Shown here: piece by piece, positions 1 through 20,201 of the stretch
Position numbering within the stretch: position 1 is the stretch's first letter
How the letters are laid out: every line of letters begins with the position of its first letter
Assembly: GCA_043718025.1 (NCBI GenBank)
Contig: JAYSWN010000134.1
Span: 1 to 26,123 of the forward strand
Length of the DNA: 26,123 bases
From: Pseudomonadota bacterium
GTDB lineage: Bacteria; Bdellovibrionota; FAC87; UBA2466
Direction: 5' to 3'
Made by a program: the position numbers and the translations under genes
The notes under the pieces: generated by a model
What the model saw: the letters and a program-made list of their open reading frames with translations, nothing else
Databases searched by the model: none
Told to the model about the DNA's origin: nothing

Positions 1-129
1 GAACAACAACGTAGGACGACCAAAAAACAAGGGCCTAGCTCTTGTCAGGGGAGTCTTTTTCCCTTGTGTTCCTTTTCCATAGACGCAATGACGGCGAAAT
101 ACCCCACTCTCCGCAGTCCCCCATTTTTC

Positions 130-206
130 TGTAAACATTTACATAAGGGTTCCTTTCTGACGTACACAAACGGTCTTCGCAATAAACGATTCTATCGTCA
201 TAGAAT
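130..206. promoter_or_regulatory. Two palindromes upstream of a sigma54-type promoter (candidate activator binding sites)
   Basis: TGTAAA-CA-TTTACA at 130-143 and ATTCTAT-CGTC-ATAGAAT at 189-206, about 140-215 bp upstream of the predicted start site near 346. Confidence 0.35.
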
Positions 207-318
207 TGCGGCGTGCCCACTTTCGGAATTCGTCAAAGCCATTCGCAAGTGTAGTGACACTTTTTGTTTTAGTCCGGTTAGTCGCATTCCCATTATTCGC
301 AAAGAAGCCTTCCGTAGT

Positions 319-335
319 TTGGCACCGCCTTTGCT
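319..335 (+). promoter_or_regulatory. sigma54 (RpoN) -24/-12 promoter
   Basis: TTGGCACCGCCTTTGCT closely matches the consensus YTGGCACG-N4-TTGCW. GG (321-322) and GC (333-334) are exactly 10 nt apart. Lies about 90 bp upstream of the ATG at 428. Confidence 0.75.
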
Positions 336-427
336 TTAGTACCTGCCGAGGCCACAAATTAGGTGTGTTACCCAAACGGGTTCAAGTTGTGGCCAAAGGT
401 TTAAGTTGAACACATTGAGGTCGTTTT

Positions 428-871
428 ATGTTGTCGTGGAAAAAGTTGTTAGTGGTAAGCGTCATGTTCCTGGGTGCCTATACTGCGAAGGCAGAAATGG
501 GAGGCCCGGTCGGCTACTATCCCGTCGCGGTTCAGCAGACGACAATTAGAATAATGAGCAACTCCTCAATGGGCTACGGTTCACACGGCATGGGCGGATG
601 CGGTAGCGGCATGTCCTGCGGTGGCGGGTACGGCGGCGGTGGCTACGGATATGGTTACGGCGGCGGATATGGTTACGGCTACGGATATGGTTTCCGCGGA
701 TACGGTCAGGGCGGAATGTGCGGCGGTCGTATGCGCCACTGCGCTTCTCACCGTAGGTGCTGCTCTCCGCACCGAAGGTATCGCAACTTTTCTTTAGGTT
801 TACGTTTTGGCGGCGGTTACGGCGGCGGTTTCGCCTTCGGCCTCAATATTTCGAGCTCTTCGTTCTACTAA
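428..871 (+). CDS. Exported Gly/Tyr-rich, Cys-containing low-complexity protein (147 aa)
   Basis: SD-like GAGG at 417-420. Sec-type signal peptide (MLSWKKLLVVSVMFLGAYTAKA|E), GYG repeats, 6 Cys, C-terminal FSLGLRF/FAFGLNI strands, followed by a terminator. Confidence 0.85.
   Translation: MLSWKKLLVVSVMFLGAYTAKAEMGGPVGYYPVAVQQTTIRIMSNSSMGYGSHGMGGCGSGMSCGGGYGGGGYGYGYGGGYGYGYGYGFRGYGQGGMCGGRMRHCASHRRCCSPHRRYRNFSLGLRFGGGYGGGFAFGLNISSSSFY
641..694 (+). repeat. 3 x 18-bp in-frame tandem repeat encoding GYGYGY / GGGYGY / GYGYGF
   Basis: GGCTACGGATATGGTTAC (641-658), GGCGGCGGATATGGTTAC (659-676), GGCTACGGATATGGTTTC (677-694). Confidence 0.9.
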
Positions 872-931
872 AAAAAATGCCCCCTAAGACGTAGACGCCA
901 ATCCCGTCAAAGAGGGCATTTTCTTTTTTTT
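870..931. terminator. Bidirectional intrinsic terminator-like hairpin with a long stem and 13-nt loop
   Basis: Arms 874-885 / 911-922 plus an inner GACG/CGTC helix (888-891 / 905-908). A8 run at 870-877 and T-rich run ending at 931. The A-C mismatch on + becomes G-U on the minus strand. Confidence 0.75.
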
Positions 932-1015
932 AAATTTAAGTGAGCCAGCCAAAGCTGGGCAGTAACCCTTGGCTGACCCACCCGAGTTTCTGTCTCGATG
1001 TATCTATACTGCCCC
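870..1015 (-). ncRNA. Putative structured small RNA (family not recognised)
   Basis: 15-bp stem 940-954 / 967-981 whose three + strand mismatches are all G-U on the minus strand. Loop segment 957-964 is perfectly complementary to 1007-1014. Small hairpin at 983-997. Ends in the terminator hairpin and U tract. Confidence 0.45.
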
Positions 1016-1073
1016 ACCGCTCCTAGCTCTTGAACATAGAAAAATGGGCATTAAAAACTCCATCAAAATATGA

Positions 1074-1082
1074 TGTTAAAAT
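1074..1082 (+). promoter_or_regulatory. Extended -10 promoter element (probable leaderless transcript)
   Basis: TGTTAAAAT lies 6 nt before ATG 1089, with no convincing SD. It is overlapped by the palindrome CATCA-N5-TGATG (1061-1075). Confidence 0.55.
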
Positions 1083-1088
1083 AGGTCC

Positions 1089-2588
1089 ATGTCTAAATGG
1101 ACTTTGCAACTGGCGGCGATTGAGGTCCGGCACCGCGCCGGCGAACGCCAAGTGGCGCTCGGCCTGCTGCGTAAGGCCATGGCGGGTCGGGTACCACGTG
1201 AGGTGGTCCTCCCCTTAGCTTCGCTGGCGCGACGGGCGGGGGCACCGGGGCTGGGCGCTCAGCTTCTTCACTCGATCGTACGGCCCGACAAGCCCACTAA
1301 CGCTACAGCGGCAGAACAAGCAGAATACGCCGCTTGTCTGGTGCGCATCGGCGCCGAAGGCGAGGCCTTAAAAATTTTGGAAACCTTGAACGGAAAGGAT
1401 TACCCGCAAGTGCTTTTGTTTCGTGCCTTCGCCCTAATTCCCCGGTGGGAATACCGGCAGAGCATCCCCCTGCTTGAGTCATTTATTGAACACCCTAAAG
1501 TGAGTGGCGAGATTCGTCTCGTCGGTCTTGCCAATCTTGCCGCCGCCCAGATTGCCGAGCGTGACTTTGCGGCGGCAGAAAAAAACGTAGATATCATTTT
1601 TGCCGAGGCCAAAGAGAAAAGTCTTCTCCTCCCGCTGGGCGTTGCGCACGAACTTTCGGCCCGCAGTGCGGTTGCCCGCCACGATTGGCAAGAGGCCGAA
1701 GTGCGGCTTAGCCGGGTTGAGGCCCACTTCGGAAGTAACGACGATATCCATCTCTTTTTTGCCCGCAAGTGGCGCTGTTTCATGGCTCTCGAAAAATCAC
1801 CCTCCAGCCCACAAGTGGCCGTCGGATTAAAAAATTTGCGCGCCGAAGCGGTAAAAAGAGGGGAGTGGGAAACGGTGCGGGAGTGCGATCGTTACGAAGC
1901 CGTGGCCCATCAAGAGAAAATTTATTTCGATCGGGTAATGGTGGGAACTCCCTATCCGCAGTACCGCCGCGGACTACTGAACGAGATGAAAGCCCAATTC
2001 ATCGAGCCCACTTATTACGATTGGCACCCCGGTGAAGTGGCGCTGCCCGACTTGGCCAAGCGAAGCGGCGGAGCAAAGGGGCTACTCGATCTATCCAGCG
2101 GTGAATTTGGCGGAGTCGAAATTAAATTAGGACAACTTTTTCATCGCCTGCTGCTCGGGCTGTCGGCAGATTTCTACCGCCCGCTGCGGCTGGCAACGTT
2201 TCACTCGCTGGTCTACCCCAGCCAGTTTTTTAATCCTCACTCATCGCCAAACCGTTTGCACAACGCCATCTCGCGCTTTAATGCCTGGGCCACGGTAAAA
2301 AAAATTCCGTTCGGCATTCACTCGGCCGCTGGCTTCTACTCTTTAACCGCAAAAAATCACGCTCGCCTTCGCCGTTTGCTGAACACCGCCCAAAGCGAAT
2401 CAGAACACCCTTCGTTAACTCTGCTGCGCCGAAAATTTGGGGCCGCAAGTTTTACCACGCAACAAGCGGCCGCAGTTCTGGAAGTTTCGCGAAGCGCCGC
2501 CCAGCGGCTTATTGATACCGCGGTCAAAAATGAGGCGTTGGCCCATTTGGGGGCGGGCCGGGGCGCGCGTCTAAAATTCTTGCCCTAA
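1089..2588 (+). CDS. TPR-like helical repeat protein with C-terminal winged-helix domains (putative transcriptional regulator, 499 aa)
   Basis: Ala/Leu-rich TPR-like helices in the N-terminal ~280 aa. OmpR/Trans_reg_C-like segment (RLLLGL...LVYP...NRLHNAISRFN) and a terminal HTH-wing (FTTQQAAAVLEVSRSAAQRLI...GAGRGARLKF). Confidence 0.75.
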   Translation: MSKWTLQLAAIEVRHRAGERQVALGLLRKAMAGRVPREVVLPLASLARRAGAPGLGAQLLHSIVRPDKPTNATAAEQAEYAACLVRIGAEGEALKILETLNGKDYPQVLLFRAFALIPRWEYRQSIPLLESFIEHPKVSGEIRLVGLANLAAAQIAERDFAAAEKNVDIIFAEAKEKSLLLPLGVAHELSARSAVARHDWQEAEVRLSRVEAHFGSNDDIHLFFARKWRCFMALEKSPSSPQVAVGLKNLRAEAVKRGEWETVRECDRYEAVAHQEKIYFDRVMVGTPYPQYRRGLLNEMKAQFIEPTYYDWHPGEVALPDLAKRSGGAKGLLDLSSGEFGGVEIKLGQLFHRLLLGLSADFYRPLRLATFHSLVYPSQFFNPHSSPNRLHNAISRFNAWATVKKIPFGIHSAAGFYSLTAKNHARLRRLLNTAQSESEHPSLTLLRRKFGAASFTTQQAAAVLEVSRSAAQRLIDTAVKNEALAHLGAGRGARLKFLP

Positions 2589-2686
2589 ATGTTTAAGAAA
2601 TTCTGTGGGTTGGCGGACGCGTTTTAAGGAAAGTGGCCGTGATTTTGCGTCCTTATCGTCGATAACGCTTGCCGCTACAATGAAAC

Positions 2687-3505
2687 ATGCCGCAAAAGTT
2701 GTCGCTTCGATGGTCAATCGGCCTAGCCCTTTGGCTGCTCACCCTTTTTGCCACGGTATCGTGTATTGATGCCACGCTCAGGCGCGGCAACAACGCCAAT
2801 GGCGGTACCGGAGTGGCGATCGATTTTGTGGTGCGGTTGCGCGGCATCGCGCTGCTTCCGCCTGGCTCGGGAGGGCATCTGTATTTGGGGCATGGCTATG
2901 ATCAGCTTTTACTAAGCTACGGTGCGCCTAATACTTTGGGCGCTTTGTACCTGTACTCCGGAGCCGCCGAGGGGCTCGACGGAAGCCGTCAGCTTCCGGC
3001 TGAGGCGATTGCGCTTACCTCGGCATTCGCGTTGCGGCAGGTCATCAACGATCCCACCCCGCTGTTTCAGATGTTCAATGAGGGAGTTCAGCAAATTGGC
3101 CTCAGCACCGTCGATTTTAAGACTCGCGACAATCAAACGGTGAGCTATCTCTTCACCAAAACCGAATCCATAGCCAGAATTGCTCCCGGCTCTGGCGTTA
3201 CCCATGTTTGCGCCGCCCCCGCTCTGTCGGCCTATGCGGCTTTGCAAGGCGAGGCTACGAGTCCGCAAATTTCTTTCGTGACCCCAGTTGGTTCCACGTT
3301 GACGTTTTTGCCGGCTACGAAGGTCTTGGGCGCCAGCACTAAGGTCTACAACTACGTTCTACCAGGGGGAGGCTTTTACGAGGTGACCTTTTCAGACAAC
3401 AGCCGCAGTTGTTCAATCCGCGCCCGCGCTGAAAACAGTGCGGACGTTCCGGCCTTTACCGCCAACGGCACATTGCTTACGCCGAGCAATGATACAAATT
3501 TTTAA
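2687..3505 (+). CDS. Exported hypothetical protein or possible lipoprotein (272 aa) with one FG-GAP-like motif
   Basis: Hydrophobic N-terminus ending in TVSC. Segment LLLSYGAPNTLGALYLYSG resembles an FG-GAP repeat. TACAAT (2676-2681) lies 5 nt before the ATG. Confidence 0.7.
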   Translation: MPQKLSLRWSIGLALWLLTLFATVSCIDATLRRGNNANGGTGVAIDFVVRLRGIALLPPGSGGHLYLGHGYDQLLLSYGAPNTLGALYLYSGAAEGLDGSRQLPAEAIALTSAFALRQVINDPTPLFQMFNEGVQQIGLSTVDFKTRDNQTVSYLFTKTESIARIAPGSGVTHVCAAPALSAYAALQGEATSPQISFVTPVGSTLTFLPATKVLGASTKVYNYVLPGGGFYEVTFSDNSRSCSIRARAENSADVPAFTANGTLLTPSNDTNF

Positions 3506-3530
3506 AAAAAACCGGCCCCGTCGCGGCCGG
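3504..3530 (-). terminator. Intrinsic terminator for 3558-4040
   Basis: CCGGCC (3512-3517) / GGCCGG (3525-3530) stem followed on the minus strand by T8 (A run 3504-3511). Confidence 0.65.
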
Positions 3531-3557
3531 CATAAAGCGTGACAATTCCAACGCGGG

Positions 3558-4040
3558 TTAGTCGCGGCGCTGGCGCGGCCCGTCCACCATCTCCACACAT
3601 TTGTAGCGAGCAATCTCATTTTTCAAACGGACGCCTTCATCGTAAGTGAGGCGGCGTTTTGCTTCGCATTCCATGATGTAGCCGTGGTTGCCTTTCCAAG
3701 GCTGGCATTCCCACAAACCGGACACTTCTTTCAAGTCAGCGATGCAGCTACTCATCTTGAGGCCGCTACTGAGGTAAGGATAGAAAAAGTACTCGGCTAA
3801 CTCTCCTCCGGCGCCTTTTTGGCCTTGGCCGAAGCAGGCATTCCAGTAGGGATAAAAAACTCCGTTGCTGTCAAAACCGGCGCCGAATATAGCCAGGCGA
3901 AAACCGCGGGCTCCGGCAATTTCCGCGCAATGCGGTAAGCTCAAAGCTCCGCCTAGATAAACGATGTTGTCAGAAGCGTGCGCTTTTCCCGTCGTGAGCA
4001 AGGCTAAGCCAAGACCCAGCGCCAAAATTTTTGCCTTCAT
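3558..4040 (-). CDS. Small secreted Cys-containing hypothetical protein (160 aa)
   Basis: SD AGGAG 7 nt before the ATG, signal peptide ending AHA|S, 6 Cys in the mature part, terminator downstream. Confidence 0.8.
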   Translation of the reverse strand: MKAKILALGLGLALLTTGKAHASDNIVYLGGALSLPHCAEIAGARGFRLAIFGAGFDSNGVFYPYWNACFGQGQKGAGGELAEYFFYPYLSSGLKMSSCIADLKEVSGLWECQPWKGNHGYIMECEAKRRLTYDEGVRLKNEIARYKCVEMVDGPRQRRD

Positions 4041-4194
4041 CTATCGACTCCTGTTTTTGTTTCGGGGAGGATAACTTCCCCCCATGCTGTGGATGGGGTG
4101 TACCACTCACGTCATTCGCTGACATGGCACTTAGCGTTGGCCCAAACCCGTGTTATGGTGCTGGTTTTTTTGAAAGAAGGATAAAGGATATTTT

Positions 4195-5326
4195 ATGGCA
4201 GCGATTCCCAATTTAGAAGAGATCCGGCGTGAGTCAGTTGACCTCGGTCAGCGGCTGGCCTTGCTACGGGGGCGTCTTTGACGTCGAACGAAAAAGCTCG
4301 CGGCTAGAAGAGATTAGTGGCTTAGAAACCCAAGAAGACTTTTGGACCGACGCGCAAAAAGCCCGTGGCGTCACCAAAGAAAAAAGCATTCTCACGGCCG
4401 TGCTCGAGCGGCTGCGTCGGGCCGAAGGCATTTTTGGCGACCTCGAAGTCATGCGCGAAATGCTGGCCGAAGACCCTTCCGAAGAAAACCGCACGGAGGC
4501 TGGCACATTACTGACCTCGTTGCATTCGGCGGTGCGGGCAATGGAAATTGCCGAGATGCTAAGTGGCCCCAACGATAATGCGGCGGCCATCGTCAATATT
4601 AACGCCGGGGCCGGTGGTACCGAAGCGCAAGACTGGGCTTCGATGTTACTACGCATGTACCTGCGTTACTGCGAAGACCGCGGTTTTAAGGTGCAAATTT
4701 TAGACTCTCTCCAGGGGGAAGAGGCCGGCATTAAATCGGCAACTTTTTTGGCCCAGGGGCAATTTGCGTACGGCATGTTGGCGGCAGAGATTGGCGTTCA
4801 CCGGTTGGTGAGAATTTCGCCTTTTGATTCAAATGCGCGCCGGCACACCTCGTTCTCTTCGGTCTTTGTTTATCCCGACATCGAAGAGGAGATTGAGATC
4901 ACCATCGATGACAAAGATCTACGGGTTGACACTTACCGGTCCGGCGGCGCCGGCGGACAAAAAGTGAACAAAACCGATTCGGCGGTTCGCCTTACCCACT
5001 TACCCTCGGGCATCGTGGTGGCCTGCCAAAACGAACGGTCGCAGCATCAAAACAAAGCGATGGCGATGAAGATATTAAAGGCGCGTTTGTATGAACGCGA
5101 GCTAGACATGCGTAAAGCCGAGTCTAGAAAAATTGAAGACACCAAAATGGAAATCGCCTGGGGCAGTCAAATTCGATCTTACGTTTTGGCCCCTTACCGA
5201 ATGGCTAAAGATCACCGCACCGATCACGAGTCGGGCGATGTAATGGCGGTGCTCGACGGCCGTTTGCAGCCGTTCATTGAGGCTTACCTCATGTCTAAAA
5301 CCGCGGCCCCGGCCCAAGGAAAATAA
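4195..5326 (+). CDS. prfB: Peptide chain release factor 2, translated via programmed +1 frameshift (join 4195-4278, 4280-5326; 376 aa)
   Basis: SPF motif (RISPFD) and GGQ motif (GGAGGQ). True start is ATG 4195 with SD AAGGA, giving MAAIPNLEEIRRESVDLGQRLALLRGRL, then CTT TGA C. Confidence 0.97.
4267..4282 (+). other. RF2 +1 programmed ribosomal frameshift cassette
   Basis: CGGGGG-CGT-CTT-TGA-C: an internal SD-like G run 3 nt before the canonical CTTTGAC slippery site (4276-4282). Confidence 0.95.
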
Positions 5327-6134: not shown

Positions 6135-6458
6135 TTATTTGCTTTTGCGAAGCGTGTCACACGAGTCCGCTACAGTGGACATATCGAGCGTTCGGCCGGT
6201 TTGAGGGCTGATGCACATCATTGTTTTACCGTATTTATTTACGAACTTGTCGCAGGCGACGGAGGCGGCCTTGATATCCATTCTTCCGGCCGCTTCGGTA
6301 GCGGTTTTAACGTAGGTTTCGGCATCCGACATGACGTTGCCGCTGCATTTTCCGTTAGCTTCAACGCCGGTTTCATTCTGTCCGCCTTTTTTGTCACCGC
6401 ATCCGCTGAGGCCGAGAGCAATTAGAGCAACGAAAGTAAGATTGAAAAGAGCTTTCAT
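6135..6458 (-). CDS. Small lipoprotein (107 aa) with four additional Cys
   Basis: Lipobox LSGC after a hydrophobic stretch, SD GGAG, and a candidate TTGATT-N16-TAAGCT promoter (6532-6505). Confidence 0.85.
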   Translation of the reverse strand: MKALFNLTFVALIALGLSGCGDKKGGQNETGVEANGKCSGNVMSDAETYVKTATEAAGRMDIKAASVACDKFVNKYGKTMMCISPQTGRTLDMSTVADSCDTLRKSK

Positions 6459-9121: not shown

Positions 9122-9805
9122 TTATTTGGCCGAAGTCTTGGTCATTACGTCGGTATCTTGAAACAGCGCCGCGACCGGATCTTTTGGATTTAAAGCTACC
9201 GGGCAGGTGTTTGCAGGCTCGCCCACCACTCCCGTCATTCCGCCTCCCGCACAAGCATAAGCAAACGCCCAGGCAAAAGCATAAACGCAAAGTGGCTTAG
9301 TAACGGTAGTGCATTTTTGGCTTCTACCGCACCTCACGCAGGCCGTAGCGGTTAGGGTTTTGCAAGCGAAGGCCGCACCAAATCCAGCTCCCCAGGCGCA
9401 GACGCGAGGGCAGTTAGCGGCGCCGGCGATTGGACCGTTTTTTAAGCAGACTGGCGCCAGCGCGGCGTTCGCATTGACCGCATTGGCACCGACGTTGCGG
9501 GCGGTGAGGCCACTCTGGTCACTAGTGACTTCGGTAATTTCCTTAAAATAACCTTCCAGTATGCTCTTGGCCACGTTGCCTGTCTCTTTGTCATCTGGGT
9601 CGTTAAGTAGGCCCTTAAAAAATTCTCGGTATTCCAACTCATTTGTATAAATCGCACTCTTGGGGTCGTTGATCATGCCGACCAGGCGAGTGACTGAGCT
9701 GTCAGGTACTAAACCGGATTGTGTTGTGGGGGCGCCTTTGTCTTTCACCTCAGCGCAGCTGATTAAGATAAGCGAAACACAGGTGGCCAGGATTAAGCGA
9801 ATCAT
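9122..9805 (-). CDS. Cys-rich lipoprotein with a predicted disulfide-laddered beta-hairpin (227 aa)
   Basis: Lipobox LISC (C17), SD AAGGA, 10 Cys in residues 120-201, alternating Ala/aromatic strands. Confidence 0.85.
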   Translation of the reverse strand: MIRLILATCVSLILISCAEVKDKGAPTTQSGLVPDSSVTRLVGMINDPKSAIYTNELEYREFFKGLLNDPDDKETGNVAKSILEGYFKEITEVTSDQSGLTARNVGANAVNANAALAPVCLKNGPIAGAANCPRVCAWGAGFGAAFACKTLTATACVRCGRSQKCTTVTKPLCVYAFAWAFAYACAGGGMTGVVGEPANTCPVALNPKDPVAALFQDTDVMTKTSAK

Positions 9806-9852: not shown

Positions 9853-9869
9853 AGCAAAGCGTATACCAA
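9853..9869 (-). promoter_or_regulatory. sigma54 (RpoN) -24/-12 promoter
   Basis: Minus strand reads TTGGTATACGCTTTGCT with GG-N10-GC spacing; predicted start near 9842. Imperfect palindrome GTCAAAAGATTAGAC (9900-9914) lies upstream. Confidence 0.7.
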
Positions 9870-10056: not shown

Positions 10057-10593
10057 ATGCAAACCGAACGGCCTAAAGCAACTCCAGTGGTGGCACCAAC
10101 CGATGAGTCGAAAGACTTTGCGTTCACTACGCGATTTTCAGATTTCATTTCTTGGGGCCGCAAAAATTCGCTTTGGCCACTCCCTTTTGGCACCGCCTGT
10201 TGCGCCATTGAGTACATGGGTGTGGTGTCTTCTCACTACGACGTTTCGCGTTTCGGCGCCGAAGTGGTTCGCTTTTCACCGCGCCAATCTGACTGCATGC
10301 TGGTGCTGGGCACGGTGGTCGAAAAAATGGGCCCCGTTCTAAAAAATATTTATGATCAAATGCTTGAGCCCAAGTACGTTATCGCGGTTGGCGTTTGCGC
10401 CTCTTCGGGCGGTTTTTATCGCGCCTACCACGTGATGCAAGGCATCGATTCGATTGTTCCGGTGGATGTTTACGTACCAGGATGCCCACCGACTCCAGAG
10501 GGGATTATTCATGGAATGATTCGCCTTCAAGAAAAGATCTCCAAGGGAGGAATTGTTCGTGCCCGAGACCGACATAAACTTATCGGTAAATAA
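10057..10593 (+). CDS. nuoB: NADH-quinone oxidoreductase subunit B
   Basis: [22 protein letters not shown] and [10 protein letters not shown] motifs (N2 cluster ligands). Confidence 0.97.
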
Positions 10594-11083
10594 CTTTCCC
10601 GAATTCTCCACGGCGTTTGTCAGTGAGATTACGGCCACGGTGGAATTTCGTGGCGATCTTACGTTTGTGGTGAAACCCCAAAAAATTCGCGAGATGCTGC
10701 GTTTTCTAAAAGGGTTGCAACGTTGCCCCTTCTCTGTGCTGATGGACGTGTTTGCGATGGATTACCTAAAGGCGGCTGAAGAGACCCCTGAGCGTTATGC
10801 GGTGATCTATAATCTGTACTCCATCGAAACCAACTGCCGCGTTCGCCTGAAAGTGTTTCTCACTGAAGAAAAGCCCACGATCGATTCAGCGCACGATCTC
10901 TATGCCTCCGCCAATTGGTTTGAGCGCGAAGCGTGGGACCTGTTCGGTATCGTATTCACCGGCCATCCGCACTTGCAGCGTATTCTTTGTCACAATGATT
11001 TTGTCGGTCATCCGTTGCGCAAGGACTACCCCTCGGATGGATACCAACGGCTAAAAAGCGCCAGCTCGTCGACGGGACTTTAA
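10559..11083 (+). CDS. nuoC: NADH-quinone oxidoreductase subunit C
   Basis: [26 protein letters not shown]...[12 protein letters not shown] 10559 is preferred over TTG 10553 because GGAGG (10546-10550) is 8 nt upstream of it. Confidence 0.95.
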
Positions 11084-11086
11084 GAC

Positions 11087-12322
11087 ATGCTTGAAACCAA
11101 TAACCCTACTTTTGTTGCGCCAGGGGCCAGGCCACTTAGCGCGCCCCCGGGAACCGAAGATAAGTACCTCCGCCTTAATTTGGGGCCGTCGCACCCGGCC
11201 ACCCACGGCACACTGCGCATTTTTGTTGCCCTCGAGGGCGAAATTATTCGCGACATGAAGCTTGAGATTGGTTACTTGCACCGCTGTTTTGAAAAGATGG
11301 GAGAGACCCATACGTGGAACCAAGTCATTCCCTTTACCGATCGGCTTAACTACTGCTCGGCCATGATGAACAACGTGGGCTACGTGATGGCGGTAGAAAA
11401 GCTTTTGAATATTGAAGTGCCCAAGCGCACGCAGCGCATTCGTTTAATCATGTGCGAGCTTTCTCGCATTATTGATCATTTGGTTTGCATCGGCGCCAAT
11501 GCCGTGGATATCGGCGCGCTCACCTGTTTTTGGTACTTTTTTCGCGAGCGCGAAAATATTTATGATCTGTTCGAGGCCGCTTGCGGTGCGCGCTTAACTA
11601 CGAGCTACACCCGGGTGGGCGGTCTATACAAAGACCTGCCCGAAGGCTGGGTGGAGTGGTGTCAGCGGGTGATTAAACAAATTCCCCGCACGTTAGACGA
11701 CGTCGGCGGAATGCTCACTGACAACCGCATTTGGATCGATCGCACCAAGGGGGTGGGTTCGATTTCTAAAGAACGCGCCTTGGAGTACGGCTTTACCGGC
11801 CCCTGTTTGCGCGCTACCGGCGTGGCGCACGACCTGCGCAAAGTGAGCCCCTATTACGATTACGATAAATTTTCGTGGAATGTGGTGACGGCGACCGGCG
11901 GCTGCACCTACGCCCGCTACTTGGTGCGCATGGGTGAGATGCGCGAGAGCCTCAAGATTATTGAGCAGGCGCTGCAAGACATTCCTGAAGGGCCGGTCAA
12001 TGTGAGTGACTGGTCAATCGCGTTGCCGCCGAAAGAGCAGGTTTATTCAACGATTGAAGGGCTTATGGCCCATTTTAAATTGATCATGCACGGGATCAAA
12101 CCGCCGGTCGGTGAGGTTTATCAAGCTACGGAAGCGGCAAACGGAGAACTTGGTTTCTTCGTGCGCAGCGAAGGCGAGGGGCGGCCGGGTCGGGTTCGCG
12201 TCAGGCCCCCTTGCTTTGCCATTTATCAGGCGTTTCCGGAAATGGCGATTGGCCAAAGTGTGTCCGATGCCGTGGCCACCCTGGGAAGTTTGAATATCGT
12301 GGCCGGAGAATTGGATCGATGA
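11087..12322 (+). CDS. nuoD: NADH-quinone oxidoreductase subunit D
   Basis: NLGPSHPATHGTLR, IGYLHRCFEK, DRLNY and C-terminal GELDR. Confidence 0.97.
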   Translation: MLETNNPTFVAPGARPLSAPPGTEDKYLRLNLGPSHPATHGTLRIFVALEGEIIRDMKLEIGYLHRCFEKMGETHTWNQVIPFTDRLNYCSAMMNNVGYVMAVEKLLNIEVPKRTQRIRLIMCELSRIIDHLVCIGANAVDIGALTCFWYFFRERENIYDLFEAACGARLTTSYTRVGGLYKDLPEGWVEWCQRVIKQIPRTLDDVGGMLTDNRIWIDRTKGVGSISKERALEYGFTGPCLRATGVAHDLRKVSPYYDYDKFSWNVVTATGGCTYARYLVRMGEMRESLKIIEQALQDIPEGPVNVSDWSIALPPKEQVYSTIEGLMAHFKLIMHGIKPPVGEVYQATEAANGELGFFVRSEGEGRPGRVRVRPPCFAIYQAFPEMAIGQSVSDAVATLGSLNIVAGELDR

Positions 12323-12831
12323 GTGAAGCGCAGATTAAATTCAATCCCGAAACACAAAAGAGGTTTGATGCCACTTGTGCCAAGTACGAGCGCAAAGCCA
12401 GTGCCTTGTTGCCGACGTTGTATATGGCGCAAGAGCAGTTCGGGTTTTTGTCGTCCGACGTAATGAATTACGTGGCCACGCTTCTTCAAATGCCCCCGCG
12501 CGAGGTTTTTGAAGCGGTCAGTTTTTATACGATGTTTAAGCAAAAGGACATGGGCCAGTATGTTCTGCAAGTTTGTCAAAACGTCACCTGCTGCATGATG
12601 GGCTCTGACGATTTAATGGCGGTAGTAAAAGAGGAGTTGGGCCTCGGTCCCTCAGAAGTTACCGCCGACAAAAAGTTTAGTCTCGTTCCGGTGCAGTGTT
12701 TAGGTAGCTGCGATACCGCGCCAGTGGTTCAGGTTAACGAAGACTATATTGAAAATTTAGATCCCGAAAAATTTCGCGAACTCATCAGAAAACTGAAGGC
12801 CACTCCTGCCGCCGGCGAGGTGACGCCATGA
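12319..12831 (+). CDS. nuoE: NADH-quinone oxidoreductase subunit E (170 aa)
   Basis: VCQNVTC...QCLGSCDTAP [2Fe-2S] motif. ATG 12319 overlaps the nuoD stop (ATGA). Confidence 0.95.
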   Translation: MSEAQIKFNPETQKRFDATCAKYERKASALLPTLYMAQEQFGFLSSDVMNYVATLLQMPPREVFEAVSFYTMFKQKDMGQYVLQVCQNVTCCMMGSDDLMAVVKEELGLGPSEVTADKKFSLVPVQCLGSCDTAPVVQVNEDYIENLDPEKFRELIRKLKATPAAGEVTP

Positions 12832-14150
12832 AATTACTGAGCAAAGAACGCCAGATTTTACTTCGCAATATTGGCACTCCCGACCTTCACACCCTTACCG
12901 GTTATGAATCCACCGGTGGGTACAAGAACCTGAAAAAAGCCTTGGGCATGGCGCCCGACGCCATCATTGAAGAGGTTAAAAAGAGCGGGTTGCGTGGCCG
13001 CGGCGGAGCCGGCTTTCCTACGGGAATGAAGTGGGGCTTTGTTCCGTTTAAAATGGGTAAGCCCATTTACCTGCTCTGCAACGCCGACGAGTCCGAGCCC
13101 GGCTGTTTTAAAGACCGGTTGTTACTTGAGCACAACCCTCACTTGCTCATCGAGGGGATCATCATCGCCTCTTTCGCCGTGCGCAGTAATAAATCGTATA
13201 TCTACGTGCGCGGGGAGTACACCAAGGCCGCCAAGATCGTACAGAAGGCAATCGACGAGGCCTACGCCAAAGGCTACTTGGGTAAGAACATCTTGGGGTC
13301 CACGCATTCTCTAGAGTTGGTGCTCCACCGTGGGGCCGGCGCCTATATTTGTGGCGAAGAGACCGGTTTGATCTCTTCGCTCGAAGGAAAAAAGGGGTAC
13401 CCGCGCCTAAAACCGCCTTTCCCCGCGGTTTCCGGATTTTTGAACTGCCCTACCGTCGTGAACAATGTGGAAACGTTATCGAACATTCCTTGGATTATCG
13501 AACACGGCGGAGCGCAGTATGCAACCTACGGCACGGAGAAAAGCAAAGGCACCCGCCTGTTTTGCTTGTCGGGCTGGGTGAACAAACCGGGCGTCTACGA
13601 AGAAGAGCTGGGCCTCCCGCTTAAAGTGATGATCGAACATTACGGAGGGGGAATGAAGAACGGCGCCAAATTGAAAGCCGTAATCCCCGGCGGCAGCTCA
13701 ACCCCGCCGCTCACCGCCGAAGAAGCCGAGAAGTGTATCTTAGATTACGAAAGCGTCGCGCAGTTCGGCACTTTTTTGGGCGCTGGTGGCATTATTGTGA
13801 TTCCCGATCACATTCCGTTGATCAAGATCTTAGAGCGCATCGCCGAATTTTATTGGGATGAGTCTTGTGGGCAGTGCACCCCCTGTCGCGAAGGCACGGG
13901 CTGGCTCTACAAAACCATTCGGGCGATGGAGCACCACCGCGGCGCCAAAGAAGACATTAATGATTTGAAGCGAACGGCCAAATCGATGATGGGCGCCACC
14001 ATTTGCGCGCTGTCGGATGCAGCGGCGATGCCGGTGCTGGGTTTTTTAAACAAGTTTCCTGCCGAGTTCGAAGCCCTGTTGGCCGAGGCGGAACGGCGCC
14101 GGCAAGTTCCGGCTGGGCGCACATTGGGCGATCTAGAGGTGGGCGGATGA
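12828..14150 (+). CDS. nuoF: NADH-quinone oxidoreductase subunit F
   Basis: SGLRGRGGAGFPTG, NADESEPG, GAGAYICGEET and ESCGQCTPCREG motifs; ATGA overlap with nuoE. Confidence 0.97.
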   Translation: MKLLSKERQILLRNIGTPDLHTLTGYESTGGYKNLKKALGMAPDAIIEEVKKSGLRGRGGAGFPTGMKWGFVPFKMGKPIYLLCNADESEPGCFKDRLLLEHNPHLLIEGIIIASFAVRSNKSYIYVRGEYTKAAKIVQKAIDEAYAKGYLGKNILGSTHSLELVLHRGAGAYICGEETGLISSLEGKKGYPRLKPPFPAVSGFLNCPTVVNNVETLSNIPWIIEHGGAQYATYGTEKSKGTRLFCLSGWVNKPGVYEEELGLPLKVMIEHYGGGMKNGAKLKAVIPGGSSTPPLTAEEAEKCILDYESVAQFGTFLGAGGIIVIPDHIPLIKILERIAEFYWDESCGQCTPCREGTGWLYKTIRAMEHHRGAKEDINDLKRTAKSMMGATICALSDAAAMPVLGFLNKFPAEFEALLAEAERRRQVPAGRTLGDLEVGG

Positions 14151-15778
14151 GCGAGGTCAAAAAAATTCAGCTCGAGATCAACGGCAAAAAGGTAGAGGTT
14201 GCCGCCGGAACTACGGTTTTTAACGCCGCGGTGGAGGCCGGGGTATTTATTCCGCACTATTGCTACCACCCCGATCTGTCGATCGCCGGCGTTTGCCGCA
14301 TGTGCATGGTTGAAATTGAAAAAATTCCACGCCCCCAGATCTCCTGCAACACCGTAGCTACCGAGGGCATGGTGGTGCGCACCGATACCGATAAAATCAA
14401 AGAGACGGTGAAATCGGTGCTCGAACTCCACCTTATCAATCACCCCCTAGACTGTCCGATTTGCGACAAAGCGGGCGAGTGTGGGTTGCAAAATTTTTAT
14501 TCAAGCTACGGTCTGTATAACAGCCGAATGGACTTCGAAAAGGTTCATAAGCCCAAGGTTCAAGACATTGGTACCATCATTCTAGATTCTGAACGGTGCA
14601 TTCTTTGCACTCGCTGCGTGCGTTTTACCGACGAGGTTACCAAGACTTCGGAGCTGGGCATTTTTCAACGCGGCGATCGTAGTACCTTGCAAGTGTACGA
14701 TGGCGGCGAGCTGCGCAACGATTACACCGGAAATCTGGCCGACATTTGCCCGGTGGGGGCTCTCACCGCCAAAGACTTTCGTTTTCAGCAGCGTGTTTGG
14801 TTATTAGACAAAACTGTTTCGGTCTGCGGAATGTGCGCGCGTGGCTGCAACACCAGTGTAAGTGTTAATTCAAAAACACAAAAGCTATACCGGGTCGAAC
14901 CTCGTCGTAACCCTGAAGTGAATGCCAGTTGGATTTGCGATGAGGGGCGCTGGGGCTACCACTACGTTTCATCGGCGGACCGGCTGAGCCTACCCAAAAA
15001 ATACTGGGACGGGGTGTGGCGCGATCACACGTGGATGGACTTTTTTAAAGAGATACAGGCGGAGATCAAAAAGTCACCCGCTGCTTGCCTCATCGGTTTA
15101 AGCACCCAAATGACCAATGAAGAGCTGTGGGATTTGGGGCAGACCCTGAAGAGTCTCGGCGTCACCGAGGTGGTCCGTTTGGCGAACGACGTGGCCGTAA
15201 AAGAAAAGACTCCTTTCGATGGCATTTTAAAACACAACGATGTCACCCCAAATGCGCAGGGTTTTGAACAGGTGATGAAGTGGTTGGGCCTTAACTGGAT
15301 CACTCTTGAAGCCGCCACGGCGGCGATGCCGCGGCAATCGCCCGAATGGGTAATGTGTTTCGGATTAGAAGGCGACGAAAAGCGGCTTGAGTTTCTGGCG
15401 CCGCTCACGTCGGCAGTGCCTCGGTCGAGCAAACTCGTATTGCACGCCACGAATCCGTTGACGGTGATGTCACGGGCGACGTGGGTAGTGCCGAACGTCA
15501 CTTTTTTCGAAAAAAATGGCACCTTCACGAACGCCTTGAATCGTCTGCAGCGAGTGAAGGCGGCGTTAACCTGGCAGGGAATGAGCCGGGATGGTCATGC
15601 CGTGGCGTTGGGTTTGCGCCGCGGCGACGATCGCGAAGCGCCAAATCCACGGGCCGGAGAAGGGCACTTTCAAAAAGTGGTAGCTCCCCAGACCAAAAAT
15701 GGTGACGTGTCGTTTAAAAAATTTCCCGCTCTGGGCGAGAAATTGGGCGAAAAGGAGGCTAGTCATGTCCACCCATAA
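14147..15778 (+). CDS. nuoG: NADH-quinone oxidoreductase subunit G (short form, 543 aa)
   Basis: IPHYCYH...CRMC, HPLDCPICDKAGECGLQ, CILCTRCVR, DICPVGAL and CGMCARGC...WICDEGR. ATG 14147 overlaps the nuoF stop. Confidence 0.95.
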   Translation: MSEVKKIQLEINGKKVEVAAGTTVFNAAVEAGVFIPHYCYHPDLSIAGVCRMCMVEIEKIPRPQISCNTVATEGMVVRTDTDKIKETVKSVLELHLINHPLDCPICDKAGECGLQNFYSSYGLYNSRMDFEKVHKPKVQDIGTIILDSERCILCTRCVRFTDEVTKTSELGIFQRGDRSTLQVYDGGELRNDYTGNLADICPVGALTAKDFRFQQRVWLLDKTVSVCGMCARGCNTSVSVNSKTQKLYRVEPRRNPEVNASWICDEGRWGYHYVSSADRLSLPKKYWDGVWRDHTWMDFFKEIQAEIKKSPAACLIGLSTQMTNEELWDLGQTLKSLGVTEVVRLANDVAVKEKTPFDGILKHNDVTPNAQGFEQVMKWLGLNWITLEAATAAMPRQSPEWVMCFGLEGDEKRLEFLAPLTSAVPRSSKLVLHATNPLTVMSRATWVVPNVTFFEKNGTFTNALNRLQRVKAALTWQGMSRDGHAVALGLRRGDDREAPNPRAGEGHFQKVVAPQTKNGDVSFKKFPALGEKLGEKEASHVHP

Positions 15779-16301
15779 CGAGATCGTTAGGCGCCCGAAA
15801 TATAAGCTTCCGATTAACCAGCGCGTCTATTTTATCGCCATTCTCAAGGGGATGATGATCACCGGCCGCCACCTGATTAGGAATCTGCTTAACTTTAAGG
15901 GCATGCCTACAATTTATTATCCGGAGCAGAAACGCAATTACTCGCCCCGATTTCGCGGCTTACAAATTTTGACTTTAAAAAACAACGGCGACATCCGCTG
16001 TACGGCTTGTATGCTTTGCGCCACGGCCTGTCCCGCCGATTGCATTCACATTACCGCCGGAGAGCATCCCGATCCAAAGGTGGAAAAATTTCCGACCGAG
16101 TTTAATATCGATATGCTTCGCTGCGTTTTTTGCGGCATGTGCGAAGAGGCCTGCCCCGTCGACGCCATTCGCATGGGTCCCAATTACGAATTGGCCAGCT
16201 TTGACCGCAGTGATTTTATTTTTACAAAAGAAGATCTGGTTCGTTTGGGAAATAATACTCAGAGCCGGGTGCAAGATCCGGTTACGTTGCCTCAGGTTTG
16301 A
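15765..16301 (+). CDS. nuoI: NADH-quinone oxidoreductase subunit I (178 aa)
   Basis: YPEQK...RFRG, CTACMLCATACP and CVFCGMCEEACP. SD AGGAGG (15753-15758) precedes ATG 15765. Confidence 0.96.
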   Translation: MSTHNEIVRRPKYKLPINQRVYFIAILKGMMITGRHLIRNLLNFKGMPTIYYPEQKRNYSPRFRGLQILTLKNNGDIRCTACMLCATACPADCIHITAGEHPDPKVEKFPTEFNIDMLRCVFCGMCEEACPVDAIRMGPNYELASFDRSDFIFTKEDLVRLGNNTQSRVQDPVTLPQV

Positions 16302-16344: not shown

Positions 16345-18156
16345 ATGTGCGTAACAAAAAGGAAGGGCGACGAGACAACCCACGAAGGGTTCGAGAGCTG
16401 GGTAATTTTTGTTGCCTATCTATTCCTTTTTGTTTCCTTGCCGCTTATCGCCGACACTTTTAAGAATCCCGCCTCAACTTTCAACATGTACATGAACGAC
16501 ACCCCGGTCTGCGGAAATCTATTCCGCGGCATCTACCGGGTGGCGAATCCTGAAAAGTTGGGAATTAGCCCGCAAGCAGATAATCAGAATTTTATTGATT
16601 TGGTGGCCAAACCGGAGGGACGAAGCAAAGTCTATTTGCATGTCACCTTAAAAGTTTTGAAGCCATTGAACGATCGGGTTTTTGCCGACGAGGGGCAAAA
16701 TGGTAAAGAAGACGTAAACAGCGTGCGAAATATCTACCGCATTCTGCTTATCGAAAATCTGCAGGCTCATCCCGAATTGAGTAAAGCCCTGGTCGGGATT
16801 GGTGACCCCGAGCCGCAGAGTCGTTTTCTTGATTTTAAAACCGCCGAGTTTGCTTTTGATCCCGCCCTCTTTACCGGGGGCGAAGCGTTGATGATGCGTC
16901 AGCTGGACGGTGTTTTGGTAAAAACCGGTCTCCAATTTGAAGCGGTGGTGATGAAAGTTTACGGCCCCCATTCGGATCTCATTGCTAACATGGCGAAGGA
17001 ACATGGCCTAGTGAGCGACCTAAATGCTTGGCACTTGGCCGGCGTGGCTAAGGGCCACCCCGATGCGGCGGCCTTCGCGGCCAGGCGGAAGGCGAGCCAC
17101 TACAACCCTGAAAAGGTTAATAGTATGAACGTGGAGCGTTTCAGCGAAACCGATGCCACTGAGCTTGTTGCCCGCATCGAGAGCGACCTTCGCCCGAAGC
17201 TGCTCGCCTCTATCGGCCAGGACTCGCCGGTATTCGCAAAAGATTTTTCGGGGCAGCACGTGATTATGTCGAAGGATAGCATCGACGTGCTTCGTAAAGT
17301 CGATGCCGTGGGTAAAGAAGATTACATTAAAAAGGTGCAGGCCGAATTTAATGCAAAGTTGAAGGTCCAATTGACTAGGGAGCAAGTGCTTGGCTTGAGA
17401 GACTACTACGCTCTGGTAGATACTTTTAGCCCCTCGATTCGGGCGGCCGAACGCACTCAGATCGATTTGACCAAGGCTAAACAAGGGAAAATCAGCGTCG
17501 ATTTCGCCGGACAGAACGTCGAAAACATTTTTCAAACCATGTCGGCGGTCGCCGAAGCTCATGCGGCGAGTTCGGGATCATCGGGACGGCGGGCGATTGA
17601 GCTGAGTCGTGTAGCCGAAGGGAGAGCCACCAAACGATTGGCGGAACTTAAAGAATACTTTGCGGCGGCGGCGAAATTGGCCGGCATTACTGGAAAAGTG
17701 GAGTTTTCTGGCGACGATGGCGAATTGATTCTTGAAAAACCTCTGAGCGACGAACAGTGGACGGCCCTCCACCGAGCTCTCGAACGCGGAGTGCACGATG
17801 AAAAAGGAATGCTCGTTAAAAAATTGGTTTCCGAATTTCGTATTGTGCACACTCCCCCCATTTTTAATAAATCTGCGGGAATCGACCCGGGAGAGATGTC
17901 GCGCGAGACCGTAAAAGGTGAAGATTTTGAAAAGAGGATACGCCGCGAACTTTATGAGACAATGGATGGGTCGCGCGTAAAGAGCTTGGGGCTTGCCAGC
18001 CGTTTGAACCCTACATCCCATACGTTTGAGCTTACCCTCGTCGGTGGTTGGACGGCCGCCGAAACAGAAGCGGTGCGTCAGTTGGCCGCGGAGAAAGGGT
18101 TCTCTCCCCTGGGGTACCGATTAGGCCGAATTAACTCGGTGCGGCAGTCGCCTTGA
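16345..18156 (+). CDS. Hypothetical protein with N-terminal signal/TM segment and possible tandem GGDEF/palm-like domains (603 aa)
   Basis: Long ORF with hydrophobic WVIFVAYLFLFVSLPLIA|D. Motifs LKPLND (aa 105-110), ISVDFAGQN (D386) and FSGDDG (S455). The domain call is inference. Confidence 0.75.
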   Translation: MCVTKRKGDETTHEGFESWVIFVAYLFLFVSLPLIADTFKNPASTFNMYMNDTPVCGNLFRGIYRVANPEKLGISPQADNQNFIDLVAKPEGRSKVYLHVTLKVLKPLNDRVFADEGQNGKEDVNSVRNIYRILLIENLQAHPELSKALVGIGDPEPQSRFLDFKTAEFAFDPALFTGGEALMMRQLDGVLVKTGLQFEAVVMKVYGPHSDLIANMAKEHGLVSDLNAWHLAGVAKGHPDAAAFAARRKASHYNPEKVNSMNVERFSETDATELVARIESDLRPKLLASIGQDSPVFAKDFSGQHVIMSKDSIDVLRKVDAVGKEDYIKKVQAEFNAKLKVQLTREQVLGLRDYYALVDTFSPSIRAAERTQIDLTKAKQGKISVDFAGQNVENIFQTMSAVAEAHAASSGSSGRRAIELSRVAEGRATKRLAELKEYFAAAAKLAGITGKVEFSGDDGELILEKPLSDEQWTALHRALERGVHDEKGMLVKKLVSEFRIVHTPPIFNKSAGIDPGEMSRETVKGEDFEKRIRRELYETMDGSRVKSLGLASRLNPTSHTFELTLVGGWTAAETEAVRQLAAEKGFSPLGYRLGRINSVRQSP

Positions 18157-18267: not shown

Positions 18268-18621
18268 ATGACACTCACCAAAGCCGAACTCATCGACTCA
18301 GTGTACGAGAAGGTGGGTTTTTCTAAAAAAGAGGCTTCCGACCTGGTGGAGCTGGTTTTTGAGAGCATGAAAGAAGAGCTCTGCAAGGGCGGCAACATAA
18401 AGATTTCGGGTTTCGGAAAATTCCGAGTCCGCGCCAAAAAAGCGCGCATGGGCCGCAACCCCCAAACCGGCGACGCCATGATGATTTCGGCGCGCAAAGT
18501 TTTAACCTTTACCCCGAGCCGCATCCTTCGCGACGGCATTAATGGCAAGGCCACCACCTTGCCTAGTCAGCAAGGCGTCGAAGAAGATGACGACGACGAT
18601 GCTGACGAACAAGAAGCTTGA
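18268..18621 (+). CDS. ihfA: Integration host factor subunit alpha with an acidic C-terminal tail
   Basis: MTLTKAEL...KISGFGKFRVRAKKARMGRNPQTG...ISARKVLTFTPS. Confidence 0.93.
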   Translation: MTLTKAELIDSVYEKVGFSKKEASDLVELVFESMKEELCKGGNIKISGFGKFRVRAKKARMGRNPQTGDAMMISARKVLTFTPSRILRDGINGKATTLPSQQGVEEDDDDDADEQEA

Positions 18622-20201
18622 GACTCAACTTGAGTCATCTCGCCTTTGTTTCGTTGTTAATTTTTAGCGCGACAATTTCGCACGGAGCTTTAGGCCCCAC
18701 CGGAAACGGGGGGCCTTTTTCTTTTTCTGCAGATAAGGCCTCATCAGGGCTTAACCTGTTTTTTAGTGCCGACCAGGCCGAACGCGAGTTCCGCCCGCAC
18801 GCCGCTGCAGGCTTGCGCAATCAGCTCATCCTCCAATGTGAAAACGATGCATTAAGTGGGGGCAAGGCGCAAACGTCTTTTCTCTGCGCGCTGGCTCGTC
18901 GCGAAGCTCACGAGCGTTCTTTTTTTGTAGCCCTACCCTTGAGTGGCTGGCTCTTTCCGCAACCAAGTTTACCGTGGCCCAACTTAAGCGAACTCACTTT
19001 TTCGGAACGAATTGCGTGGGAGGCGAGGGCATTCTTATCTGGTTCACTTCGCGGCGACCAAAATATTGGAAAGGGCTTCTTAGCGATTGAGAGTTTGAAC
19101 CGTTTGTTTCCTTCCTTCACCAATGGCCGGTGGTGGAAATATGAGGCAGCAATGTCTACTCGTGAGCGGACACGGTTAGCCAGTGCCGTGGCCAGTCTCA
19201 ACACCCTTGGGGTGAGTGAGCACGAGGCCTCCCGGCAAGCGCGAGCTCGGTTGGACGGGTTGACCTTTGGCGTGGCTCCGCAGATTGGCTACCGATCTTT
19301 TTCGGGTTTTTTCGCCGGCGTTCGGGTGTGGGATGATCGCCTTAGCGACGAGGATCGCAGCGTAGCATTGATGGCCACGGCATTTTCAAACTCAACGCTA
19401 CTGGGGAACGCGCGCTATTGCGATCGGGTTGTCGTAGCTCCCCTTTTTATCGAGTCCGAGTTTGGCGGGGGGTGGGATCGCCGCCGTTTTCTCAATTCAC
19501 AGAGCGATGACGTCACGTATTTTAGGCAAAGCTTGGCCAGCGTCAGGCTGGGCATCGGCTATGAAATGGCCCCGTTTCTCACCGCCCGCACTGGCGTTCG
19601 GGTAAGTGCCAAAGGTGACGAGCGACCAGACGGCGGCACGGGATTGGTAGCGCAATCGGGTTACGGCACCCTCGGCCCCGACTTGAGTCTGGTTTGGGAT
19701 CTTCGCGATAGCGCCGTGATACCTCGGCACGGTTTATACGTCGGGGTGGTGGCGGGCCGTTCTTATCTAGATGGCACTTCGTCCTATTGGGATTTAAGGG
19801 GCCGTATCGAGGCCTACTCGAGTTTGTCGCGCCGGGTGTCGTGGAACACCATTCTTGCGGCATCGGTTTTTGTAGGCAATTCGCGGCGGGATCTTTTACC
19901 GGTATGGGGCGAACAAAATTTATGGCTGCCGGGGGTGGCCCACGAACGTTACCGGGCGCAACGGGGCTTGGGCGCGTCGACGGAAATCCAAAGCGAGTTG
20001 GCCGAAGGGATTCGCGGTTTAGTCTTTGCCACGGCAATTGCCTTAGGCGATCCGCAGGTAAGGCAAGATGCCTTTTTGTGGGGCGGCGGCGTGGGCGCAG
20101 AGGTCTCTTTTACCAGAAAAACACGGCCCACCTTTCGCTTTGAACTGGGGTGGCTGTCTCAGGAGCTGAGCATTCGCACCGAATGGAAAGTCGCGATTTA
20201 G
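18618..20201 (+). CDS. Omp85/BamA-TamA superfamily-like outer-membrane beta-barrel protein with helical N-terminal domain
   Basis: Signal peptide; amphipathic strands from about aa 215; WDLRDSAVIPRHG (D-x-R-D...P-x-x-G), LPGV...RYR, WGGGVGAEV and FRFELGW. TTG start overlaps the ihfA stop. Confidence 0.7.
   Translation: MRLNLSHLAFVSLLIFSATISHGALGPTGNGGPFSFSADKASSGLNLFFSADQAEREFRPHAAAGLRNQLILQCENDALSGGKAQTSFLCALARREAHERSFFVALPLSGWLFPQPSLPWPNLSELTFSERIAWEARAFLSGSLRGDQNIGKGFLAIESLNRLFPSFTNGRWWKYEAAMSTRERTRLASAVASLNTLGVSEHEASRQARARLDGLTFGVAPQIGYRSFSGFFAGVRVWDDRLSDEDRSVALMATAFSNSTLLGNARYCDRVVVAPLFIESEFGGGWDRRRFLNSQSDDVTYFRQSLASVRLGIGYEMAPFLTARTGVRVSAKGDERPDGGTGLVAQSGYGTLGPDLSLVWDLRDSAVIPRHGLYVGVVAGRSYLDGTSSYWDLRGRIEAYSSLSRRVSWNTILAASVFVGNSRRDLLPVWGEQNLWLPGVAHERYRAQRGLGASTEIQSELAEGIRGLVFATAIALGDPQVRQDAFLWGGGVGAEVSFTRKTRPTFRFELGWLSQELSIRTEWKVAI

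Follow-up and report, generated by a model that had tools for sequence, protein, structure and literature searches.

What kind of protein is built around cysteines that mirror one another? The question is raised by one gene in the stretch of DNA analysed here (26,123 nt; hereafter, the window), an open reading frame (ORF) on the minus strand at 9122–9805, whose 227-aa product (P0001) has cysteines at residues 9, 17, 120, 132, 136, 148, 156, 159, 165, 173, 185, and 201. A first-pass annotation of the window had singled out the ten cysteines from residue 120 to residue 201, four pairs of which share an index sum of 321 and two of which (C132 and C159) have no mirror partner, and had interpreted them as a disulfide-laddered beta-hairpin on a lipoprotein. 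Rereading the ORF confirmed these positions and pairs, and the region runs, as had been given, from 9203 (end of the C201 codon) to 9448 (start of the C120 codon); the strand sequences and the lipobox are also as described there. Every other index sum occurs in at most two pairs, and when ten cysteines were placed at random in the same span, four pairs fell on one sum in ∼0.2 per cent of 200,000 trials. A looser mirror test is passed by 14 of the 4,508 six-frame ORFs of the window's genome, and hence P0001 by itself is suggestive and the proof rests on its homologs. Further candidate six-frame ORFs with four to five nested mirror pairs of cysteines are found on contigs C100, C163, C65, and C2 of this genome.

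The P0001 gene is present in a single copy in the assembly, and its neighbors are not co-oriented with it. Its first 17 residues (9755–9805; this and all other parts of the gene are on the minus strand) comprise a signal peptide whose hydrophobic stretch leads into the lipobox LISC17, which is followed by alanine and not by aspartate. C17 is invariant in all eight rows of our first alignment, and a lipobox-like cysteine, assigned by eye, is present in 19 of the 28 family proteins. P0001 is thus a bacterial lipoprotein by the usual criterion (signal peptide II with a lipobox cysteine), and its lipidation is predicted. A helical domain with a recurrent L..DP.S..Y/F motif, delimited by AlphaFold helices and alignments, spans residues ∼35–94 (9524–9703). 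The hairpin consists of strand 1 (C136–C159, 9329–9400) and strand 2 (C165–C185, 9251–9313), both assigned from the spacing of the ladder and from AlphaFold strands at 148–159 and 162–173, respectively. In strand 1, odd offsets from the first rung are occupied by alanine and glycine, and even offsets by the rung cysteines (136, 148, and 156) and by aromatic residues; strand 2, with rung cysteines 165, 173, and 185, mirrors it. C159 (9329–9331), at an odd offset, is a spare cysteine at the hairpin tip on the alanine face, and C132 (9410–9412) is a spare cysteine at the base; both are invariant in the eight-row alignment. C120 (9446–9448) is likely bonded to C201 (9203–9205), as suggested by their spacing and by their joint presence or absence in relatives.

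A word-indexed search recovered a first relative, P0002, which is 46 per cent identical to P0001 and has all ten cysteines at the same spacing. Searches of related genomes supplied further members, and a profile built from eight sequences and run against 1.84 billion representatives retrieved 28 proteins at an E-value of 0.001 (query included), to which a final search added P0029. With L003, the set comprises 30 sequences, two of which (P0020 and P0022) are N-terminal fragments and one of which (P0015) stops in the middle of the hairpin. The family is therefore small (∼29 proteins). Within the window's order, a member is encoded in eight of 37 other genomes (one of them truncated by a contig end), and a ninth match covers the N-terminal region only; outside the order, weak partial matches (E-values of 0.001–0.009) that do not extend to a full hairpin occur in eight of 363 sampled genomes. 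Genome G010 has a second family copy at the end of contig C517 (L283, 1465–1740), of which the contig end leaves the N-terminal part. We take P0011–P0013 to resemble myxobacterial lipoproteins. The first-pass annotation had recognized no family for P0001, and neither did our searches: P0001–P0028 have no family match in Pfam, NCBIfam matches only the HAF repeat of P0021, and PHROGs have no match to the family. The best match of a 28-row profile among PDB sequences has an E-value of 0.23, which is not a real match, and the ESM Atlas returned unnamed clusters (best score 0.81) and nothing for the hairpin. No member was found in phage and plasmid records, locus searches of named genomes, metagenomes, and viral contigs gave nothing that tblastn confirmed, and a degenerate DNA pattern search led to simple repeats, with a family member at none of those loci. 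A literature search of open main texts did not reveal a description of such a bacterial family. We conclude that the family is real and undescribed.

The homologs bear out the ladder. In each of 27 hairpins, the outermost in-register pair of cysteines was chosen by eye (P0015 was left out, as was P0023, which has unequal strands, no tip cysteine, and no single register), and all 38 of the remaining inner cysteines on the outer face have a mirror partner. When strand 2 was shuffled, the mean number of matched cysteines was 5.8 and the maximum was 14 (5,000 trials). Eight rung patterns are found, and at least nine changes are needed to explain them on a tree of 26 proteins, a tree that includes the hairpin columns and has weak deep branches. 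Given the close relatedness of many members and the visual choice of the outer rung, these counts overstate independence. Across the family, gains and losses of rungs are pairwise, and the loss of a single rung cysteine, which would have spoken against the hairpin, was never seen. Changes in length likewise affect both strands together, placing the tip 19, 23, 25, 29, or 33 residues past the first rung and giving hairpin spans of 43–71 residues. The hairpin is therefore well supported by paired changes, and its disulfide bonds are predicted. The ∼80-residue extent originally proposed does not hold, however: the C120–C201 pair keeps exact register in no members other than P0001 and P0002, and in the remaining relatives it is off register or both cysteines are gone, so that the true hairpin is C136–C185 (∼50 residues), with C120–C201 likely tying together two flanking linkers and not forming a rung of the strands. 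If strand 1 is straight, C136 and C159 are 76–78 Å apart, and the hairpins of the family likely fold as two-stranded ribbons of 6–11 nm.

Structure prediction, which had been suggested as a check of the ladder, agrees with it in part. AlphaFold models made from two and from 28 alignment rows have mean pLDDT values of 35.8 and 53.5, respectively, and both contain strands only at 148–159 and 162–173. In the 28-row model, these strands are joined by a turn at 160–161 in the register that the ladder demands, and helices are predicted at 37–46, 56–67, and 73–94 (pLDDT 57–80). The alanine-rich base of the hairpin, on the other hand, is drawn as a low-confidence helix, and hence these weak models support the tip half of the hairpin only. 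Fold searches of the PDB and BFVD with the 28-row model gave nothing at an E-value of 0.001. Retroviral capsid N-terminal domains, which came up in a wide fold search (Z = 5.3, rmsd = 5.6), were rejected, as the match is below the tool's threshold and leans on the low-confidence helix.

The two faces of the hairpin differ sharply in composition. At odd offsets, the 27 hairpins have 71 per cent alanine, 10 per cent glycine, 7 per cent valine, 5 per cent serine, and ∼1 per cent charged residues, whereas even offsets have 41 per cent aromatic residues and 12 per cent cysteine, the rest being mixed and including serine, glutamate, threonine, lysine, and histidine. Alanine and glycine together account for 81 per cent of the odd face and 7 per cent of the even face, and aromatic residues account for 1 and 41 per cent, respectively. 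Rungs and aromatic pairs thus occupy the same face, and disulfides and aromatic (Trp) pairs at non-hydrogen-bonded sites are described as standard stabilizers of designed hairpins (PMC10302803). Since this is the face on which such stabilizers are placed, a membrane is not required to explain the aromatic residues. The alanine face is small throughout in every member, from which we infer that it is buried against a flat and close surface.

That surface could in principle be provided by other hairpins in a membrane. Several hairpins would then close into a beta-barrel, with aromatic residues toward the lipid and an alanine- and glycine-lined lumen, and serve as an outer-membrane anchor, a greasy channel, or a protegrin-like pore. 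The base of P0001, with two strands of 11 wholly apolar residues each (approximately one membrane thickness), fits a membrane as well and so counts against packing between ribbons; the outer face at the base lacks polar residues in six of 27 members, and a lipid anchor is present. But a barrel of this kind would have no polar lumen face, given that the alanine face is almost free of charged residues, and at the base, two to four of ten outer-face residues are charged in three of 27 members and at least four are polar in seven of 27. Ideal barrel radii are 3–4.7 Å for four strands, 5.3–6.2 Å for six, and 7–7.9 Å for eight, and a filling of alanine only would suit the tightest packing. In the loci that we read, genes for immunity or transport are not among the conserved neighbors. 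We regard the barrel, one of the options put forward at the outset, as weakened by these observations and rather unlikely; judged from sequence features, the other option, an oligomer or fibre, fits better.

Charge bears on the same question. The first-pass annotation had pointed to a basic turn and to an acidic, pro-like helical domain, but neither is a family trait: the net charge of the hairpin ranges from −7 to +7 (it is positive in six of 28 members), and that of the upstream region, which is mildly acidic in P0001, ranges from −21 to +13. The protegrin-like pore is weakened accordingly. Within the lipoproteins, the helical domain and the hairpin do tend to be oppositely charged (rho = −0.66, n = 19; after merging of close kin, rho = −0.63, P-value = 0.02, 13 lineages), as would be expected of a pro-domain or of a domain folded against its own hairpin, but over all 26 full-length members the correlation fades (rho = −0.30, P-value = 0.14), and it was spotted post hoc, after the data had been viewed. 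We treat it as a lead for a shielding role. The helical domain may be a spacer for the hairpin, or a shield that covers the ribbon until assembly. P0025 has a signal peptide followed by the hairpin and almost no helical domain, and P0021 has a HAF-repeat region after the hairpin; the hairpin is therefore a portable module.

The cysteines outside the ladder follow a rule of their own: all 32 unmatched inner cysteines are at odd offsets, that is, on the alanine face. A tip cysteine equivalent to C159 is present in 26 of 27 hairpins at an odd offset of 19–33 from the first rung, and C159 is >90 per cent conserved in the 28-row alignment. P0023 has no tip cysteine, and P0026 has lost it and kept the base cysteine. 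Six members (seven with P0029), which form a separate group, have a second alanine-face cysteine at +15; in a separate clade consisting of P0018, P0021, P0024, P0027, and P0029, which also have this cysteine, the lipobox is missing and a Lys/Arg-rich stretch precedes the hairpin. The total of cysteines in the mature protein is even in all 18 lipoproteins with a tip cysteine, which leaves one flanking cysteine over, and the number of flanking cysteines is odd in all 19 lipoproteins. In P0011–P0013, the leftover cysteine follows the hairpin instead of preceding it. The total is odd in four of 26 full-length members, and in these at least one cysteine must be free or bonded to another chain.

In a straight ribbon, C132 is out of reach of C159, and the strands of four of the 28 proteins (P0008, P0010, P0019, and P0026) have neither glycine nor proline at which to bend. 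Bonds between subunits are therefore the simplest account of the spare cysteines, and the earlier suggestion of such links is plausible, considering that these are among the best-conserved cysteines of the family. Alternatively, the ribbon could fold back or curl within a monomer, burying its alanine face on itself or on the helical domain and closing an intrachain C132–C159 bond. The even totals are equally expected from a monomer with intramolecular bonds throughout and to that extent count against the intersubunit reading. P0011–P0013, which exchange the upstream base cysteine for one located six residues downstream, look as if the tip needed a base partner, and strand 1 of P0001 has three glycines. 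For a monomer, however, the Ala-X period would be expected to break at mid-strand, which it does not; many members have a rung at the would-be bend, the distance to the tip varies from 19 to 33, and P0025 has almost no helical domain to fold against. In the second group, moreover, strand geometry would place the +15 and +23 cysteines ∼27 Å apart on one strand. On this evidence we hold the monomer to be improbable.

The tip cysteine raises one more possibility. By analogy with the needle of phage tail fibers, three hairpins could assemble into a six-stranded, metal-tipped needle, on whose axis the tip cysteines would surround a metal ion. The tip cysteine does face the alanine side, the would-be axis, and of the 27 members with a tip cysteine, 17 have it within a CxxC motif. 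Yet the first cysteine of this motif is absent from the other ten, whereas rung cysteines are never lost singly, and no histidine follows the tip cysteine, so a haem c site is absent. A six-stranded barrel would probably be too loose for alanines alone, and the oxidizing setting of an exported protein disfavors thiolate–metal sites. We consider such a needle very unlikely.

We lean, with modest confidence, toward an assembly. P0001 would be an exported lipoprotein whose residues 136–185 form a ∼7.5-nm ribbon, and copies of it would pack by their alanine faces and be locked by disulfides of C159 and C132, either as a dimeric rod or as a two-layer fibre; we divide the likelihood about evenly between the rod and the fibre or mesh. 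After export and lipidation, the protein would be oxidized by DsbA/DsbB-type proteins of the host, and the genome encodes DsbB and four DsbA-like proteins. The rungs and the cross-strand aromatic pairs would stiffen one face of the ribbon, and a partner ribbon would bury the alanine face, in an arrangement resembling the double sheets of silk-like or RADA16/MAX1-like assemblies. The spare cysteines would cross-link subunits either tip to tip and base to base (parallel) or tip to base (antiparallel). The parallel arrangement is slightly favored, since it fits every member and places both lipid anchors in one membrane, while antiparallel stacking is compatible with the even cysteine totals and with the 'anti' stacking reported for MAX1 (PMC12940918). 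Through its free edge strands, the pair may grow at the cell surface into a cross-beta fibre or mesh of two layers, although a long fibre may be impeded by the lipid anchor and helical domain that every subunit carries. The product might be a structural component of the envelope or cell surface that is made at a specific stage, with a cargo domain carried in one member. More speculatively, and with more doubt than belief, we suggest that the family is a natural, encoded counterpart of designed self-assembling hairpins, in which a dry alanine interface, welds by spare cysteines, and growth at the edges yield a cross-beta fibre or mesh that is covalently cross-linked and attached to the outer membrane and whose width is tuned by the lengthening of both strands. 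It would be an undescribed class of bacterial surface polymer, turned on by sigma-54.

Among known systems, cystine-ladder hairpin peptides (theta-defensins, protegrins, and tachyplesin) are ∼18–21 residues long when mature. Like them, the family has a two-stranded hairpin with nested cross-strand cysteine pairs along one face, preceded by a separate domain and by an export signal at the N-terminus. Unlike them, it is bacterial and mostly lipid-anchored, spans 43–71 residues, is not cationic throughout, has an opposite face made almost entirely of alanine and glycine, and conserves spare cysteines. Designed peptides offer a second comparison: MAX1 hairpins assemble into double-layered cross-beta fibrils (PMC12940918), and in RADA16 fibers two sheets are stacked around a hydrophobic core (PMC4909781). 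As these sources describe them, they share with the family a strict alternation, a uniform face of small apolar residues (alanine in RADA16), the hairpin (MAX1), and, as predicted here, two-layer packing; the family differs in being natural, two to three times longer, and disulfide-stapled, with aromatic residues on its outer face and with a helical domain and a lipid anchor besides, and its fibre is a prediction. In Ena1 pili, the endospore appendages of Bacillus, stacking of beta-sheets is locked by intersubunit disulfides through cysteines of a terminal connector (bioRxiv 10.1101/2020.08.21.260141). The likeness to Ena1, so far as that report describes it, lies in intersubunit disulfides, predicted here from the position of the cysteines, and in a stage-specific surface structure. 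Ena subunits, however, are jellyrolls in Gram-positive spores, whereas our protein, which does not match them in sequence, is a lipoprotein of the Gram-negative type that carries a single hairpin, and fold searches with the low-confidence P0001 model did not match an Ena-type jellyroll. Curli subunits (CsgA/CsgB) have Gln/Asn-rich curlin repeats; P0001–P0028 have no Pfam curlin match, and glutamine and asparagine are minor in their strands. The family belongs to none of the cystine-ladder peptides, the RADA16/MAX1 designs, or the Ena pili.

The sequence rules are unusually clean (paired rungs, alanine on one face, and spare cysteines confined to that face), and what they predict is a type of assembly that is built deliberately in protein design and for which the literature searched yielded no bacterial counterpart. 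The minimal member is 140 residues long with a core of ∼50, and one synthetic gene or peptide would suffice for a test. Should the hairpin polymerize, envelope fibres would gain a new kind, and redox-locked peptide materials would have a natural template. The weight of the finding is limited by the rarity of the family, its uncultured hosts, and the lack of a phenotype.

Expression of the gene may depend on sigma-54. A pattern search identified a −24/−12 element of the sigma-54 type (TGG-N8-TTGC; 9854–9868, minus strand) ∼60 nt upstream of the start. The element is present in five of the nine upstream regions examined and absent from four, against a background of 0.03 per 300 nt; it is located 56–64 nt upstream in four genomes, that of the window among them, and in a fifth it precedes the methionine used by 112 nt; four of the five genomes are congeners. 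We consider it a conserved putative promoter element. No sigma-70 promoter was found upstream of P0001. An exact match to a mis-spaced version of the promoter pattern, at 20796–20809 within a patatin gene on the other strand, is at chance level. The rpoN gene was not found in the window's assembly (92 per cent complete), but all five relatives have it and the window's genome has 14 strong matches to sigma-54 activators; we therefore read its absence as an assembly gap.

In the window's genome and three relatives, the P0001 gene is divergent from nuoB, and in the window's genome and two relatives, it adjoins a convergent gene for an NlpD-like LysM/M23 protein. These orientations, together with the other neighbors of distant members, led us to reject a link with complex I or NlpD. 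The nuo genes of the window run in the order nuoB-C-D-E-F-G-I (10057–16301), with no nuoA directly upstream, and the adjoining ORFs have no Pfam match to the membrane arm. They are followed by an ORF of 603 aa without a match (16345–18153), found in the same place in a congener with 49 per cent identity. A 527-aa protein (18618–20198) has a weak match to Omp85 (E-value = 2e−5), and the start of its gene overlaps the end of an IHF/HU gene, an order also found in L026. The regions 1–4040 and 6135–6458 have several ORFs that lack a Pfam match; most of these appear to encode an export signal, and one of them specifies a 107-aa cysteine-rich lipoprotein. In L027 (1027–2181) and L025 (250–1920), cysteine-rich ORFs with no Pfam match and with N-termini that by eye are pilin-like and hydrophobic adjoin the P0001 homolog. 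L025 also encodes, in one genome only (G012; 3127–4785), a lipoprotein-like haem peroxidase of the animal type, divergent from the homolog; that it might cross-link Tyr-rich hairpins through dityrosine is a thought only.
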